A stretch of DNA of 55,862 nucleotides from a virus: IMG/VR virus record IMGVR_UViG_3300045988_011856, positions 1-55,862 of that record. One strand, given 5' to 3'. The notes below the pieces were generated by a model, which did no database searches, was not told the origin of the DNA, and saw nothing but the letters and a program-made list of their open reading frames with translations. The position numbers were made by a program, and so were the translations under genes. Of the stretch, positions 1,949 to 51,510 are shown piece after piece; position 1 is the first letter of the stretch, and each line of letters opens with the position of its first letter.

Positions 1949-2262
1949 GCAACCTCCATAATTTTTAGCAATAATCTGTCTGCGATTTTAAACACTTCTC
2001 TTCCGTATGTAGCCAAGAAGTCTGCTACGATTTCCTCGGTGCCAATATCCATGTATACATTATACGAAAGACAGAACGCATGACATAATTCGTGACATAG
2101 CACTTTGTCTAAAAATCCACCGAGCAGATCATCCGCGATATAGATTGTTTGCGTGTTCCGGTCTGTCATACCTACAGTCCTGCTACCATCGCTACGCATT
2201 AGCATAGGGTTCTGACGCGATATTTTGACTATTTCCCACGTTTTATTATTAATCTTGAACAT
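1945..2262 (-). CDS. putative zinc metallopeptidase (HExxH)
   Basis: Contains the HELCH motif. Start trimmed to MFKINNK after GAGGTG. Confidence 0.55.
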   Translation of the reverse strand: MFKINNKTWEIVKISRQNPMLMRSDGSRTVGMTDRNTQTIYIADDLLGGFLDKVLCHELCHAFCLSYNVYMDIGTEEIVADFLATYGREVFKIADRLLLKIMEVA

Positions 2263-2273
2263 CTTTATCACCT

Positions 2274-2299
2274 CAAAAAGAAAGGGGCGAAATCGCCCC
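2274..2299 (-). terminator. Rho-independent terminator
   Basis: On the minus strand: GGGGCGA-TT-TCGCCCC followed by TTTCTTTTT. Confidence 0.75.
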
Positions 2300-2304
2300 A
2301 ATTC

Positions 2305-2985
2305 TTACATTTTAGTTACCAACGCGGTCAGTTTACGTTTTGTCAAATCTTTCTCTTCTGGTGACATTCCTGCGATCAGTTCCGTCACATCCTCGGAAAG
2401 AGACTTCATGTACTTTTCGAGTTCCTTCATTTTGGCATCCTTGTCCGCAGTAGAATCGCCATGATGCATCTCCTTGGTCTCAATATAACTTCTTCTGTTT
2501 ACTCCGGCGCGTCCTTCTCTCACATCGTGCATATCAGCTTTCATTCCATCATCATGCATTGGCTCGGTAAAGAACATTCTACCAAGCATAGCGCGGTCAA
2601 GGTCTCTCATGCGTTCAGCTTCTGGCATGGATTCCCACTCTCGGTAATCTTCCGGCATCTGGTGATAATATGGAGGTTCTACATATCCTCTGCGTGTTCC
2701 GCGCCCTTTCGGTGCAAATCTGCCGTTTGCATAGCGGTAATGGTCGTAATATCTTCTGTCCGGATAATCTTCGTACTGTTCAAGCATACGCATAATATCC
2801 TCATTATCTTCAGACTTTTTCATGGCTTCAACAATGTTATAGTCCTTGTCAAAGCATACGATGTTCTTTGCAATTTCCGTCCAATCCTTGAGATCATCAA
2901 GGTTTTGTCCCTCAAAATTCTCGATTCCAATGCCGTCAACGTGGGCTTTCACGCAATCCATAATCTGTTTCGCAAACTTATGCAT
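2305..2985 (-). CDS. hypothetical protein, charged and Tyr/Arg/Asp-rich
   Basis: Intact ORF in an operon with its neighbours. Confidence 0.65.
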   Translation of the reverse strand: MHKFAKQIMDCVKAHVDGIGIENFEGQNLDDLKDWTEIAKNIVCFDKDYNIVEAMKKSEDNEDIMRMLEQYEDYPDRRYYDHYRYANGRFAPKGRGTRRGYVEPPYYHQMPEDYREWESMPEAERMRDLDRAMLGRMFFTEPMHDDGMKADMHDVREGRAGVNRRSYIETKEMHHGDSTADKDAKMKELEKYMKSLSEDVTELIAGMSPEEKDLTKRKLTALVTKM

Positions 2986-2989
2986 AATA

Positions 2990-3409
2990 TCAAGCCTCCC
3001 TTACTGCAATCAAATTACTGTTCTGCACCTCGATAGCCTGTGTAGACGTATTCTGCACGGCTACGGTACTGCAACAGCTGCAAGGCACATCAACGTATGT
3101 CTGTGCCGATACATTAAAGAAATTCTCAACTGCCGCTGGCGTTACAATCATCTTTGTTGACTGCAAAGGCTCTCCGTCAACCGCGATTGCAAGCGAAATC
3201 TCTCCGACTGTTCCGCCTGTCGGAATCTGAATGTTGCCGGAATACGATACCAAAAATCTAGCCTTGCACTGATTGGTGATACCTCTTAATTTTATAATTC
3301 CACTTCCCTGTCTGTGCACAATACATTTACTACCGCAAACCGGTGTTTCTGTAAATGCCACATCTTCGCCGGCGGCAACTGTTTGTAATGCAATTCCTGT
3401 TACTTCCAT
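2990..3409 (-). CDS. hypothetical protein resembling BclA C-terminal / exosporium BxpB-type (C1q/TNF-like) small domains
   Basis: Start MEVTGIALQ after GAGAGG. The pattern of short beta-strand motifs (GIIKLRG, FLVSYSGNIQ, ISLAIAVDG, VAVQNTS) was recognised by eye only. Confidence 0.5.
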   Translation of the reverse strand: MEVTGIALQTVAAGEDVAFTETPVCGSKCIVHRQGSGIIKLRGITNQCKARFLVSYSGNIQIPTGGTVGEISLAIAVDGEPLQSTKMIVTPAAVENFFNVSAQTYVDVPCSCCSTVAVQNTSTQAIEVQNSNLIAVREA

Positions 3410-34082: not shown

Positions 34083-34111
34083 AATATACCACAAGCAGAG
34101 GAGTTTGTCAC
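34083..34111 (-). promoter_or_regulatory. Promoter of the moron
   Basis: The minus strand reads GTGACA-17 nt-TATATT with TGG just upstream of the -10. The -35 overlaps the tape measure stop codon. Confidence 0.5.
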
Positions 34112-36471
34112 TATACCGGATATGGTGCGGTGCCGGTCTTATTAAAGAACTCTTGCGCACTCTTTCTCGTGCTATCAAAGATAACTTTGCCATCAAGTAC
34201 AATCTGAATAGGCTGACCGCCGTTGCCGTTGCTTCTAATATATGAACGCAATACGCGTTCCGTAGCTTGCGCCACTCCATTTGCAACAGATGAAACAATC
34301 TGATCGTTATTCATAACCGCCGTATGACCGCCAAGGTTTCCAACAAGTTCCGGTCCCGCTTCTCTTGCGATAAACATTTGACCGAAATTTGGTGCTCCGC
34401 CTGCGGCATACTTCTTAATGCTATGCCATGAACCGCCGTAGAATACGCCACCATCGGCTTTCTTTTCGGCTTTTGTCCCAACATCAACGGATTTTCCGGT
34501 AAAAAACCTTGTTACGGAAGACCACAGATTGCTCAAAGCGTTTTTTGCAAAACTTAACCCGATAGTCACCGTTCTAGTTACACTATTCCATGAAGTCTTG
34601 AATTCGCTCCACAATTCACTAACCTTAGTTCCCCTCTTCATTAAGAAAGAAACCGTTTTCTTTTCTCCCCATGACTTCTTGAAGTCTCCCCACAATTCGC
34701 TTATCTTTGATGCGATCTTTAATAAGAATTGTGCCGTTCTAGTTTCTCCCCACGACTTCTTGAACTTATCCCACAGGTCTTTAGCCTTTGAGCCGATTTT
34801 CAGCAAGAATTGTGCGGTCTTTGTCTCTCCCCAAGACTTCTTGAATTTTTCCCATAAATCAGAAGCCTTAGGAGCAATTTTTGTCTTAAACTCCGCCGTT
34901 TTGTCCTTTACATTCTTCCATTCTTTTGTGAAATCTTTCCACAAATCAGAAGCTTTATTCTTGATCTTTGCTACGATTTCAAGTGCATTGTCTTTTTTCT
35001 TCTTCCAATACTTCTTAACTCCGTCCCACCAATCAGAAATACTTTGAAACGTTTCTCTATAAGATGGTAATTCAACTCCTGCGAATGGAATATAAACATG
35101 GCTATCGCCATTTTTTACATCTTTCCACCACTCAGAAAAAGCTGGTCCCCATGTGTCGTTCCACCAATCGGAAAAGCCTTGCTTCCAATCATCTAAGGAA
35201 TATGAAAATAAATCGCTGAATTTAAAGTCAACGCGGTACTTTTTCATTTCTTCCGGTTGCGTAGCATCGGCTATCTTATTTCCAATTGCTTTTCCAAGTG
35301 ACAATCCTGCCTCTGCCGTAATAACAATCGCTCCTACAGTCAACGCAAGCTTTCCGATTTTTCCAGAAATAGTTCCAAGCCCTTTTAGCTTTTTTGACAG
35401 TGCATCGGATAGCACACTTCCAATCGTTGAATTTGCTGCGATTTCAACACCTAATTTAGATGCTATCGCCGAAGCAATCTTTTTAGAAATAGCAGTTCCA
35501 ATTGCGCCAAGAGCTGCTTTTGCTAAATGCAGTCCTAAAATTTTCTTAATAGTCAGTGCACCGACAATAATTGCAACCGTCTTTATATCTAAGTTACTTA
35601 AAAACTCCTTTGCTCCGTTCCAAACATCCTTCCAAGAAATTTTACTTAACGCTGTCGTAACTGCATCAAATGCGCCTTGCGCCCATGTATTAAGTGTTTG
35701 AGCAAACAGAGCGAAATCAAAGTTCTTGAAAAACTTATTGACTCCATCAGCAATAGAATTTCCAAATTGTTTCCAATCAAACGTTGTGCCGAATGAATCC
35801 AATCCGTGAAGCACTGTGTTTAATGAATTAGCTATTAACTTTCCGGTCTCTCCGAATAATGTTGTGCCTTTCTGACCTTCAAACAATCCATTAAGAAACT
35901 TTGCAAGTCCGCTACCAAAGCCGGAAGCTTTGGCGTACACCTTATCCCACTTGATTTCTTTCATTGCGTTTATCAACGCACCGGATATTGACTTTCCAAG
36001 CCCTTCAAGGTCTTTGATCTTGCTTTTATAATCCTTAAAAATAGTGTCAGCCGCTACGAGTTTTCCGCTTGAACCGCTTGCACCACCGCCTCCGGATGAA
36101 CCACTACCGCTACCGGACGAACCTTTATCTTTATTTGAACTGATTACTTTTAATTCATCAAATGCTCTGGTTGATTTCTTTGCTTCTTTTGCGGCTTTCT
36201 TTGTACCGTTTGCCGCGTTATTTGCCTCGTCCGCTACATTTCCATAGCTATCAGCTAAATCGTCCGTAATGCCTACGTCACTTGCTTCATACTTCCATCC
36301 GAATATTGAGCCGAGCGCGTCTGTTACCATCGTTGCAAACTGAATTACCTTTTGTAGAACCGCATTTAAAGTCTTTACAAGCGGTTTGAAAGCATTGATC
36401 AGAGCCCCACCAACAATGCCGGATAACTGTTGGAATGATTGCTTGAGGATTGTTACTTGGTTATGCCATGT
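34111..36471 (-). CDS. tail tape measure protein, exon 3
   Basis: Begins TWHNQVTILKQSFQQLSGIVGG, the ANQxRxL segment of TP901-type tape measure proteins. The frame opens immediately after a TAA. Confidence 0.85.
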   Translation of the reverse strand, partial: TWHNQVTILKQSFQQLSGIVGGALINAFKPLVKTLNAVLQKVIQFATMVTDALGSIFGWKYEASDVGITDDLADSYGNVADEANNAANGTKKAAKEAKKSTRAFDELKVISSNKDKGSSGSGSGSSGGGGASGSSGKLVAADTIFKDYKSKIKDLEGLGKSISGALINAMKEIKWDKVYAKASGFGSGLAKFLNGLFEGQKGTTLFGETGKLIANSLNTVLHGLDSFGTTFDWKQFGNSIADGVNKFFKNFDFALFAQTLNTWAQGAFDAVTTALSKISWKDVWNGAKEFLSNLDIKTVAIIVGALTIKKILGLHLAKAALGAIGTAISKKIASAIASKLGVEIAANSTIGSVLSDALSKKLKGLGTISGKIGKLALTVGAIVITAEAGLSLGKAIGNKIADATQPEEMKKYRVDFKFSDLFSYSLDDWKQGFSDWWNDTWGPAFSEWWKDVKNGDSHVYIPFAGVELPSYRETFQSISDWWDGVKKYWKKKKDNALEIVAKIKNKASDLWKDFTKEWKNVKDKTAEFKTKIAPKASDLWEKFKKSWGETKTAQFLLKIGSKAKDLWDKFKKSWGETRTAQFLLKIASKISELWGDFKKSWGEKKTVSFLMKRGTKVSELWSEFKTSWNSVTRTVTIGLSFAKNALSNLWSSVTRFFTGKSVDVGTKAEKKADGGVFYGGSWHSIKKYAAGGAPNFGQMFIAREAGPELVGNLGGHTAVMNNDQIVSSVANGVAQATERVLRSYIRSNGNGGQPIQIVLDGKVIFDSTRKSAQEFFNKTGTAPYPV

Positions 36472-36782
36472 CAATTATGTTATCGTAAAGGCTTTTTATC
36501 CTCTACTTCTTATGGTTTCCCATAAGTTCGGCGTACATTTTCAACCACAGTGTTGTGGTTGTCGGATACTCTTGGGGATGTTATATTCTATACTCTTTCC
36601 ATAAGAAAAGAGCATAGGTTCAATCCCTACGCTCTACAATGTGCTATAACTTTTATTTTATAGCCTTATCTCGGTATTAGCTTATTGACTTACCAAAAAT
36701 CAACTTAGCTTTCACCGATTTTACCCGATTTTTCATCGACATATTACTATGCCGCGCGACACATGAAACAAAAGTTTCGTTT
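36472..36782 (-). ncRNA. Group I-like intron 2 in the tape measure gene (311 nt, no ORF)
   Basis: Follows exon U (GAU) and ends in G. Guide sequence CAUGU-GUCG pairs with the exon 3 start ACAUG and the exon 2 end CGAU. Several 7-bp hairpins, one with a GAAA loop. Confidence 0.75.
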
Positions 36783-36955
36783 ATCGGCTGTTCTGGCAAA
36801 GTCCCCCTGTGCCGCAGCCGTGTTAGCCATAACATATTGGTATCTAAGCATGGCTTTTTCGGCTTGCGTCATTGTCTTAAAATTAGCTTCTATGCCTTGC
36901 GTAAGTGCCCATTCCTTAAGTGTTGCTTGGGTTAAATCTAAACCGTAAGTCCTTA
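36783..36955 (-). CDS. tail tape measure protein, exon 2 (173 nt)
   Basis: Encodes (L)RTYGLDLTQATLKEWALTQGIEANFKTMTQAEKAMLRYQYVMANTAAAQGDFARTAD, the missing conserved core between exons 1 and 3. Confidence 0.8.
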
Positions 36956-37228
36956 CATTTATACCCTCGGTTTCCCGATATTTATTAGGGGATTAGACTA
37001 TCTCACAACCTCGTAAAAGGTCTCCGATACTTCGAGTGGTGCTAATCTCCACCCTACGGCTTTCGCCTAGTCGTTACACCTTCCTATTCTCATAGGCTCG
37101 GCTCGGTATTGCCCTCGTCTTTACGTTAGGGTTTTTACCGATAGCAAGAGAATCATTCTCTCACACCGCTTTTGCTTGCGTTCTTCGGATTATTCGTAAT
37201 GCATTTCTGCATTAAGCCGCTAATGTCA
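36956..37228 (-). ncRNA. Group I-like intron 1 in the tape measure gene (273 nt, no ORF)
   Basis: 5' splice site after U with P1 CCGU/GCGG. Terminal G. P2 TAATGCA-GAAA-TGCATTA. Four GAAA tetraloops. P7-like GACTA/TAGTC inside R/S-like elements. Confidence 0.75.
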
Positions 37229-38222
37229 ACGGTCTGGTCTGTCCGGTAAAGATTGATTCCAAGTCCTCCGCTACGTCTGATTGTGCCACATCATAGAATG
37301 ATGCCATGTCTGCGGTCAGCTTCGTGAGTTGTACAGACATATCTGCCATCTTGCCTTGCGGAAATCCCATAGCAACGCCCATTGCTTGAAATCGGCTTGC
37401 AAACTGTTTTACAGATAACTCGGACATACCGAATTTCTGAATTGAATCCGCGGCAAATTCATTTACAAGCGATTCATACTTTCCAAAGGTTGTACGAACT
37501 ACGTTCTCAACCTCTGTCAGACTTGAAGATATGTCGATTGCATCCCTTATTTTTCCAAATCCTCGGAACAATAGGAAATATGATGCATACACTTTTCCTA
37601 TTGCTGACGCAAGAGAAAATGACTTCTTGGTTGCACTAGAAGCGCCGGAAGTAAAACCACTAAACGAACTTGTGATGCTTCTAGCCGCAGTTCCTGCCGC
37701 TCCTCCTGTTCTTGCTAGCTTCGCAAGTGCATTTGTCATGTTGATAAGATTTTGACTTACCATAGGTGCTTTTGACAATTCTGCCATAAGCTGACGCATC
37801 GCAACCGCAAGTTTTGGTATGTTCTCGATAGCCTTTGTTGAGCTTGTATAACCAAGCTGTTTGATTCCTCCAGCTAATTCCGACAAGCCTTGCACCGATT
37901 TTGACATGTCAGAAAATGAGCTTACAGACTTTGAAATCTGTCGCATTGATCCGGCTGCTGCATTTATCTTTCCTGTGTCAATGTTGCTAAGCGTTTTAAT
38001 GTTTCTTGCAAGAGTCGAGAATGACCTTGAATCAACACTCCGCATGGCACTCATTGAGTTTGACAATCGGTTTACTCCGGTTGATAACCGGTTAATTCCG
38101 CTAGAATCTATGCTTTGCAAGGATGATGATAATTTTCCAAGCCTTGTTATCAGCGCATCAATCTGTCCGTTAGCTTGCCTTGCCTGTGCTTGAATTTTGA
38201 CCTCTAAGGTTTCTAATTCCAA
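37229..38222 (-). CDS. tail tape measure protein, exon 1 (TTG start)
   Basis: GGAGGTG RBS. Ends ...DVAEDLESIFTGQTRP(L). If left unspliced it runs into TAA 4 codons later. Confidence 0.85.
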
Positions 38223-50908: not shown

Positions 50909-50991
50909 CGCAGATACAAGGACTCGAACCTTGACAGCATTTCTGCTGGATAGCTTAGCAAGCTACTGGAATACCATTATCCCATATCTGC
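50909..50991 (-). tRNA. tRNA-Ser (anticodon GCU), type II with long variable arm
   Basis: Acceptor GCAGATA/TATCTGC. Anticodon stem GTAGC/GCTAT with loop TTGCTAA. Variable arm CAGCA-GAAA-TGCTG. T-arm CAAGG-TTCGAGT-CCTTG. Confidence 0.85.
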
Positions 50992-51077
50992 AAATAATTT
51001 ATTGGCAGGACTTAGCAGCGCATTTTCTGTACCGCCCATTTAATCAAGCCTTGTCGCCTACTTGAACCAATAATTAG

Positions 51078-51149
51078 CTGGGATAGTGGGGATCGAACCC
51101 ACGGCATTCTGATTAACAGTCAGACGTTCTACCTCTGAACTATATCCCA
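51078..51149 (-). tRNA. tRNA-Asn (anticodon GUU)
   Basis: Full 72-nt cloverleaf. Anticodon arm TCTGA-CTGTTAA-TCAGA. T-arm GTGGG-TTCGATC-CCCAC. Confidence 0.9.
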
Positions 51150-51438
51150 ATAACCGCCGTTAAGCGGTTAGCAATATGTTTTACGTGCTATGCATTGCAC
51201 TATCTCGGGCACCGTGGGATAGATGCCCGAATCATAGTTGACTGCTATATGGATTGCACGTCTGCAAATTACGGAACGAATACCGCTCAACACCATATAG
51301 TCTTACATCAAAGACCTACCGGACGGTCTCGCACCGTCCTTAACAGAATCGTCCTAGTAGGCGGAGGACTCCGGATAGCATAAAAAGTAATGCCTACACA
51401 GAGTCAGAAACGTCCGTATGCAAACGATAACAGACGAA

Positions 51439-51510
51439 CTGGGTTAGCCGGACTCGAACCGGCAAATGCAGGAATCAAAATCCTGTGCCTTACCACTTGG
51501 CAATAGCCCA
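51439..51510 (-). tRNA. tRNA-Gln (anticodon UUG)
   Basis: 72 nt. Anticodon arm CAGGA-TTTTGAT-TCCTG. T-arm GCCGG-TTCGAGT-CCGGC. U1-A72. One C.A mismatch in the acceptor stem. Confidence 0.8.

Follow-up and report, generated by a model that had tools for sequence, protein, structure and literature searches.

Positions 36472-36782 (minus strand) of a 55,862-nucleotide stretch of viral DNA, the IMG/VR record IMGVR_UViG_3300045988_011856 (hereafter the window, which comprises the whole stretch), very probably hold a group I intron of subgroup IA, devoid of an endonuclease gene and inserted in the gene for the tail tape measure protein of a gut phage that has not been cultivated. A first-pass annotation made from the sequence had proposed a group I intron without an open reading frame (ORF) in this gene. 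The proposal is borne out by an intron-less allele that lacks exactly these 311 nucleotides (nt), by covariation in the core, including the P3/P7 pseudoknot, and by a sibling intron that carries an endonuclease. The element is referred to as intron 2; a second intron, intron 1, lies 173 nt upstream of it in the same gene.

Exon junctions and the empty site

The interrupted gene is arranged on the minus strand as follows, with the evidence in brackets; dN/dS is the ratio of non-synonymous to synonymous substitution rates.

37229..38222, minus: exon 1, 994 nt, listed with a TTG start
36956..37228, minus: intron 1, 273 nt, second group I intron, of another lineage (RF00028, 24.3 bits; exact insertion relative to contig L006)
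36783..36955, minus: exon 2, 173 nt
36472..36782, minus: intron 2, 311 nt, ORF-less, read as group I, subgroup IA (exact insertion relative to L006; RF00028; covariation; minimum free energy fold)
34111..36471, minus: exon 3, 2361 nt with the stop (dN/dS relative to the intron-less allele, 0.10)

Exon 2 ends in ...GCC GAT at 36783 and exon 3 begins with ACA TGG CAT AAC at 36471. Between them intron 2, read from 36782 to 36472, starts with AAACGAAAC and ends in ...AUAAUUG. Read-through from exon 2 meets a TAG after 11 codons, in an ORF (36747..36872) whose product ends in ...FARTADKRNFCFMCRAA before the stop; the exon ends, the 311-nt extent and the in-frame stops described in the first-pass annotation agree with these coordinates on the minus strand. 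When 38222-37229, 36955-36783 and 36471-34111 are joined, the result is an ORF of 3528 nt that contains one stop only and codes for 1175 amino acids (aa), with the junction sequences GCCAGAACAGCCGAU/ACAUGGCAUAACC and CAGACCAGACCGU/UAAGGACUUACGG (a slash marks the junction here and below). A 215-aa peptide that spans both junctions forms one gapless block with uninterrupted tape measure genes, the homologues aligned being those of Roseburia phage Jekyll, Anaerostipes phage AC844P2 and Streptococcus phage Javan351. The joined peptide at the second junction, ...GDFARTAD-TWHNQVTILKQ..., was predicted correctly beforehand, and its residues D155, W157, N159 and Q160 are invariant in this gapless alignment to uninterrupted proteins.

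A search of 5.8 billion proteins for tape measure homologues recovered uninterrupted proteins at 97%, 93% and 89% identity, the best of which (P0001) is exactly 1175 aa long; proteins of 785-817 aa from the same search correspond to exon 3 of interrupted alleles. The contig that carries the 97% allele (L006) aligns with the window gene in three blocks, and what the window has in excess is exactly 311 + 273 nt. The empty site reads ...ACAGCAGAC/ACATGGGCAAAC..., and the comparison with L006 leaves a one-base ambiguity (an A) at the second junction, where the rule that a U precedes the intron and a G ends it returns the coordinates given in the first-pass annotation. Comparison of the spliced coding sequence (CDS) with the intron-less allele gives a dN/dS of 0.08, and of 0.10 when only exon 3 is taken, which indicates that the interrupted gene is maintained as a whole.

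The exact ligated-exon sequence also exists as DNA in four long phage contigs (L286-L289, 57-62 kb), where intron-type flanks, GCCGAT/ACATGGCATAACCA, surround a site from which the intron is absent. These four contigs represent either precise loss of the intron or a preferred homing site. The matches to the ligated junction were considered as possible spliced transcripts, and this was ruled out, given that they are DNA contigs of intron-less genomes and not complementary DNA.

The guide sequence and the group I fold

The elements of the proposed ribozyme are listed below, with intron numbering where it is used and the supporting evidence in brackets.

36757..36765, minus: internal guide sequence 5'-CAUGU/GUCG-3', nt 18-26 (read from the sequence; shuffles; allele flanks)
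36737..36754, minus: P2 hairpin with GNRA loop (GUAA; GCAA in relatives), nt 29-46 (7/7 pairs changed on both sides)
36722..36728, minus: P3 5' strand, nt 55-61, UCGGGUA, pairing with 36562-36568 (covariation; minimum free energy fold)
36671..36718, minus: P4-P5-P5a arm, nt 65-112 (P4 invariant; comparison with the 1216-nt form in L018)
36690-36698, minus: P5a loop, UUUUGGUAA (insertion point of ~905 nt in relatives)
36643..36664, minus: P6 hairpin, nt 119-140, GCUAUAA/UUAUAGC (7/7 pairs covary)
36628..36634, minus: P7 5' strand, nt 149-155, G-[A bulge]-GCGUA, presumed guanosine-binding helix, pairing with 36530-36535
36575..36627, minus: P7.1 (GGGAU/AUCCC) around the optional P7.2 (CUAUGCUCUUU/AAAGAGUAUAG) (covariation; minimum free energy fold)
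36562..36568, minus: P3 3' strand, nt 215-221, UAUCCGA (covariation)
36544..36559, minus: P8 hairpin, nt 224-239 (outer three pairs covary)
36530..36535, minus: P7 3' strand, nt 248-253, UACGCC (covariation)
36485..36526, minus: P9 (GAAA loop) and P9.1 (covariation; blastn to Streptococcus phages)

The guide sequence, CAUGUGUCG at 36765-36757, fits both exon ends. Its GUCG (nt 23-26) pairs with CGAU at the end of exon 2 to form P1, with a U.G pair at the splice site, and its CAUGU pairs with the first five bases of exon 3, ACAUG, to form a P10 of 5 base pairs (bp); the 5' splice site follows U36783 and the terminal intron base is G36472. The first-pass annotation had placed the guide, both pairings, the U at -1 and the terminal G in the same way, and the sequence agrees with it throughout. 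Such a guide is rare by chance, one of equal quality (P10 included) being found within the first 60 nt in 12 of 200,000 shuffles of the intron. The exon flanks, moreover, track the presence of the intron: the 5' exon ends in GCCGAT in 68/68 intron-bearing alleles, and the 3' exon starts with ACATGG in all 59 alleles whose 3' end lies within the stored locus. In most of 80 intron-less loci the second site reads GAC/ACATGG, a C at -1 with which no wobble is possible, and GCCGAT is found in only two of them. Such a pattern would arise if the flanks were co-converted during homing, or if P1 and P10 were under constraint.

A scan of the whole window with Rfam at the gathering threshold gave no match at the intron 2 locus. 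When 1.1 kb was searched with an E-value threshold, RF00028 matched 36509-36768 over the full model (1-253) with 35.5 bits and an E-value of 3.7e-7, and the same search returned a full-model match on intron 1. The check with RF00028 named in the first-pass annotation thus gives a full-length and significant match whose score lies below the gathering score of 50.

The 3' domain was modelled as P7 (with a bulged nt), P7.1, P7.2, P8, P9 and P9.1 on an alignment of 54 diverse relatives produced by MAFFT, which is blind to structure. Paired states occupy 90.6% of the cells, against 70.8% in shuffles, and 30 pairs show double changes; none of 500 shuffles reaches any of the observed measures, and controls with the model slid along the alignment are 31-48% paired. 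P7 is 99.4% paired, with four of its six pairs covarying, and P7.1 is 97.4% paired, with all five covarying. The P7 pair G151-C252 is invariant in 54/54 sequences, and the adjoining pair covaries between G-C and A-U across a bulged A or C. P7.2 is 90% paired where present, and both P9 and P9.1 covary. In P8 the outer three pairs are 92.9% paired and covary, and the inner three (46.6% paired) lie in a region of variable length that MAFFT aligns too poorly for them to be scored. For the 5' domain, 15 full-length ORF-less relatives were aligned. Long-range helix P3 is 99% paired, with 6/7 pairs covarying, and P2 and P6 covary at each of their seven pairs; P4 is invariant, and hence uninformative for covariation.

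Variation among close copies is in keeping with this picture. In 18 distinct ribozyme sequences, drawn from 61 near-identical copies, 10 stem pairs vary, six of which remain canonical throughout by means of G.U or compensatory changes; in certain sequences the four others contain a mismatch, placed at the end of a helix or in the peripheral P5a and P8. Between the window and Logan contig L007 an A-U pair of P8 is replaced by G-C, a compensatory change, and the P2 loop changes from GUAA to GCAA, GNRA being kept within the lineage. The minimum free energy (MFE) fold, computed with no comparative input, recovers P2, P3, P4, P5, P5a, P6, P7.1, P7.2, P8, P9 and P9.1, and its energy of -96.8 kcal/mol compares with -58.9 +/- 4.7 for shuffles (z = -8.0).

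Subgroup IA, to which phage introns usually belong, is marked in the Michel and Westhof classification by additional helices, P7.1/P7.2 (or P7.1a), that separate P7 from the P3 3' strand. Intron 2 has a 53-nt arm at this place (nt 156-208), where RF00028 puts a 56-nt insertion, and this P7.1/P7.2 arm assigns it to subgroup IA. Four strong hairpins had been noted in the body of the intron, three of which correspond to helices of the model: GCTATAA/TTATAGC is P6, (A)ACCACA/TGTGGT(T) is P8 and CTTATGG-GAAA-CCATAAG is P9. The fourth, GAGCGTAGG/CCTATGCTC, has been discarded; it can be drawn, yet it is 66% paired in the alignment, which is the level of the shuffles, its 3' arm is absent from 22-42 of the 54 relatives, depending on the pair, and its bases belong to P7, P7.1 and P7.2.

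A splicing pathway may be proposed from these elements. The late transcript would fold into a group I core, with P3-P8 and P4-P6 domains and the P7 pseudoknot, in which the guide would hold the CGAU end of exon 2 through the U.G wobble. An exogenous guanosine bound in P7 would attack after U36783, the guide would then align exon 3 (ACAUG) through P10, G36472 would enter the guanosine site, and the exons would be ligated. With intron 1 also removed, the mRNA would encode the 1175-aa tape measure protein.

Several points weigh against this interpretation. Splicing in the cell, autonomous or assisted, is deduced from a core that is intact and covaries, from the guide, from selection on the exons and from precedent. 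P1 is short, with 4 bp on the exon side, and an alternative hairpin that sequesters the P7 5' strand is thermodynamically possible. The last three bases of the intron, UUG, are in frame with exon 3, and ORF callers therefore list a separate 787-aa ORF. The RF00028 score, 35.5 bits, is under the Rfam gathering score of 50, and at that score the model found no match in 14 loci with relatives of the intron (L004, L005, L007, L011, L013, L018, L023, L034, L069, L082, L083, L087, L097 and L118), a result that points to low sensitivity of RF00028 for this IA lineage and not to a defective copy in the window.

It might be argued that the gene lies in pieces and is not spliced, two or three polypeptides being made from 38222-37212, exon 2 and 36474-34111, with the 311 nt as a mobile-element spacer. 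The ORF listing, with its 336-aa and 787-aa ORFs, the latter starting at the TTG formed by the last three bases of the intron, agrees with such an arrangement, as does the public annotation of related phages with two tape measure CDSs. Nevertheless, exon 2 (58 codons) is conserved while having no start of its own that covers its conserved 5' part, and no ribosome-binding (Shine-Dalgarno-like) sequence is visible before the TTG of the 787-aa ORF. A mere spacer, moreover, would hardly keep a complete group I core with compensatory changes, or a guide sequence that fits both exon ends, and one interrupted tape measure gene, that of phage ICP1, is known from RNA sequencing (RNA-seq) and reverse-transcription PCR (RT-PCR) to be spliced (PMC10448857). 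We therefore regard a gene in pieces as very improbable.

Forms of the intron and its relatives

The copy of intron 2 in the window contains no ORF, and so no homing endonuclease. L018 and contigs like it have a related tape measure gene (...ITGDFARTAD/TWHNQ...) that is cut at the same nucleotide by an intron of 1216 nt. Comparison of this long form with intron 2 shows three differences in the first 84 nt and 97.7% identity over nt 91-307; the remainder is an insertion of ~905 nt in the P5a loop, with a 293-aa ORF that combines GIY-YIG and NUMOD1 domains (Pfam) with I-HmuI-like NUMOD domains. Just 3' of its own P5a loop, the window copy reads UAAGUCAAUAA, which matches the last codons and the stop of the endonuclease ORF. 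The window copy is a shortened intron that has lost its endonuclease gene. On the minus strand of the L018 locus (intron nt ~79-125), the P5a 5' strand continues into TTGACT-17 nt-TATAAT, a sigma-70-type consensus located ~10 nt before the start codon of the endonuclease; this predicted promoter suggests that the endonuclease may be expressed from within the intron on its own.

The exact first 29 nt of intron 2 occur in 68 IMG/VR contigs, and both intron ends were recovered in 59 of them. In 58 of the 59 the intron is the endonuclease-bearing form of 1214-1216 nt; the remaining one (L252) has a form of 310 nt with the same loop junction as the window. Contig L007 has both introns, as the window does, and the short form is found in at least two tape measure backgrounds, that of the window and L007 and that of L252. 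Intron 1 is present in none of the 63 IMG/VR contigs with intron 2 in which it could be assessed, and in IMG/VR none of the 80 tape measure loci that match best is interrupted at either site. The window copy, of the rare endonuclease-less form, is not autonomously mobile by itself, and the GIY-YIG/NUMOD1 endonuclease of the 58 other contigs would be the means by which the intron spreads between phage genomes.

The rarity of the short form (1/59 complete IMG/VR copies), the missing endonuclease gene, which marks the stage before loss in the life cycle of an intron, and the RF00028 score under the gathering threshold would all suit a decayed intron that no longer splices, in a tape measure pseudogene of a defective phage or prophage. 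This is slightly less probable still than a gene in pieces, given that dN/dS in the exons is 0.08-0.10, including the 2.4 kb downstream of the intron, and that P7, the guanosine-site pair G151-C252, P3, P4 and the terminal G are intact. The occurrence of the short form in two or more tape measure backgrounds argues in the same direction, as do the 10 varying stem pairs described above, with their canonical majority and their mismatches confined to a helix end or the periphery. An insertion of another type, whether a group II intron, a remnant of a miniature inverted-repeat transposable element or insertion sequence, or an intein-like in-frame element, has nothing in its favour beyond the presence of an insertion and can practically be dismissed, since the junctions (GAT/.../ACA) show neither target-site duplication nor terminal inverted repeats, 311 nt with no Rfam group II match do not suit a group II intron, the in-frame stops exclude an intein, and the fold, by covariation and MFE, is that of a group I intron.

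Relatives of intron 2 are widespread in phages of Firmicutes. With blastn, its 3' two thirds have DNA relatives at 70-78% identity in 131 deposited genomes of phages, among them those of Streptococcus, Staphylococcus and Clostridium; in the same comparison, no DNA similarity to Bacillus phage records was detectable. In phages of these three genera, relatives are situated in tape measure and terminase genes that are split. The closest deposited relative is in Streptococcus suis phage phiJH1301-1, where an ORF-less insert of ~298 nt (L004 2455-2752) separates two tape measure CDSs at a point which, read from the sequence, is one nucleotide from the site homologous to that of intron 1. In Clostridium perfringens phage phiCP34O, a relative of ~1.07 kb (L005 ~2005-3071) with an ORF of ~260 codons likewise lies between two tape measure CDSs. 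The gaps in these two phages each appear to hold a group I intron of the family of intron 2, and in the public records neither they nor the Staphylococcus and S. thermophilus inserts are annotated as introns. Contig L118 has two members of the family ~1 kb apart (P9.1 motif at offsets 7045 and 8091), both ORF-less and ~290 nt long.

The 3' end of these introns is strongly conserved. The stretch from nt 254 to nt 305 or 311 (P9-P9.1) is 88-93% identical in Streptococcus phages, mostly of S. thermophilus, an exact 18-base P9.1 motif is present in more than 120 IMG/VR contigs (loci L008-L127), and the 3' module P9-P9.1-GAUAAC is >90% identical in many Firmicutes phage introns. It is far more conserved than the catalytic core, which has diverged to ~70% in many of them. 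There is a small chance that this conservation goes beyond recent common descent, in which case the module could be the binding site of a shared splicing-cofactor protein or a recombination module for endonuclease-less introns; the presence of the short form in two tape measure backgrounds would fit the latter.

Intron 1 splits a Leu codon as U/UA, and its exon end CCGU pairs with a guide GCGG. The last ~50 nt at its 3' end share 89-96% identity with intron-like regions of Staphylococcus phage Twort, Listeria phage P100 and Bacillus phages SIOphi and Grass, which places it in a lineage other than that of intron 2. In a rumen contig from a metagenome-assembled genome labelled Paludibacteraceae (L279 1-1700), only exon 2 of the query is matched (residues 27-79, 72% identity), and a 314-aa ORF with a GIY-YIG-like N-terminus precedes the match; this suggests that L279 may contain a further tape measure gene in which both sites are occupied by inserts. 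Rfam at E <= 0.01 gave no group I match on L277 or L279.

The phage, known systems and implications

The spliced protein matches PHROG 1535, 'tail length tape measure protein', with an E-value of 9e-65, and the same identity follows from annotated homologues and from gene order, the gene being located after tail and chaperone genes. The more specific label of TP901-type, used in the first-pass annotation, finds no support: there was no match to TIGR01760 or PhageMin_Tail, nor to any tape measure family in Pfam or NCBIfam. None of the NCBIfam models matched the spliced protein, and against Pfam only the unrelated Baculo_PEP_C did so, below threshold (E 0.0074, 16.8 bits against a cut-off of 38).

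The host is probably a bacterium of the Lachnospiraceae, considering that the nearest prophage tape measure proteins, of ~70% identity, are encoded in Lachnospira and Roseburia genomes. The host assignment is based only on these proteins, as the exact 29-nt 5' end of the intron had no match in 185,579 bacterial and archaeal genomes. A Megablast search with the remainder of the window found no close relative among deposited phages. Two other features of the window are an Rfam match to a type II hammerhead ribozyme (RF02276; 649-712, plus strand; full model, 37.4 bits against a gathering score of 37, E 4.7e-4) and three tRNA genes within ~600 nt (50909-51510, minus strand; 74.5, 59.3 and 57.5 bits), one with a long variable arm.

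The td intron of phage T4 is also of subgroup IA with P7.1/P7.2, and its GIY-YIG endonuclease, I-TevI, which has a NUMOD-type DNA-binding region, is looped out from a peripheral helix; ORF-less derivatives of introns are known in T-even phages. Its host gene encodes thymidylate synthase and its host is a proteobacterium, and its likeness to intron 2 lies in the structural features just named.

Closer parallels come from tape measure genes, which are among the frequently interrupted genes of phages (Barth et al. 2023, PMC10448857). Prophages of the Bacillus cereus group, such as lambdaBa01, contain the group I introns TMP-IVS1/2/3 in this gene (Tourasse & Kolsto 2008, PMC2504315). Some copies of the set are without a complete endonuclease gene, related introns occupy different sites with adapted P1 and guide sequences, different introns occupy one site, and their spread among related phages is sporadic (PMC2504315). 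The window resembles that case in having several IA-class group I introns in one phage tape measure gene, and the position of the phiJH1301-1 relative of intron 2, one nucleotide from the site of intron 1, is a similar circumstance. The comparison is made by description, and it differs in that ours is a gut phage of Lachnospiraceae type, with another tape measure family and other sites.

In Vibrio phage ICP1, splicing over an endonuclease-bearing insert restores the full-length tape measure protein, as demonstrated by RNA-seq and RT-PCR, and endonuclease content varies in constant surroundings, as it does here (PMC10448857). The ICP1 inserts, however, have HNH-3 endonucleases, whereas the sibling of intron 2 has GIY-YIG/NUMOD1 and the window copy none. 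Within the Firmicutes phage family, members lie in split tape measure genes, as inserts by Staphylococcus terminase genes and in stretches near the starts of S. thermophilus phage genomes; their insertion sites and host genes are other than those of intron 2, as are the sequences and lengths of P1, P2, P5, P6 and P8.

Group I introns in phage tape measure genes were already reported in 2008 and 2023; intron 2 is a further example, and it leaves the knowledge of group I introns as such unchanged. If the conserved-module reading of the 3' end were true, it would add a layer to phage intron biology. The lineage of intron 2 scores below the Rfam gathering threshold, and standard Rfam annotation would miss all of it. 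As a result of introns being missed, the tape measure genes of no fewer than 68 gut-phage contigs in IMG/VR, together with those of deposited genomes such as phiJH1301-1 and phiCP34O, are split into two or three ORFs, and predictions of tail length made from the split ORFs would be wrong. A single site displays the life cycle of an intron, being found empty, empty with intron-type flanks, occupied by an endonuclease-bearing form, and occupied by a rare form from which the endonuclease was lost. The practical value of intron 2 lies in the correct annotation of gut-phage tape measure genes, and in a tidy natural case of intron gain, endonuclease loss and intron loss.

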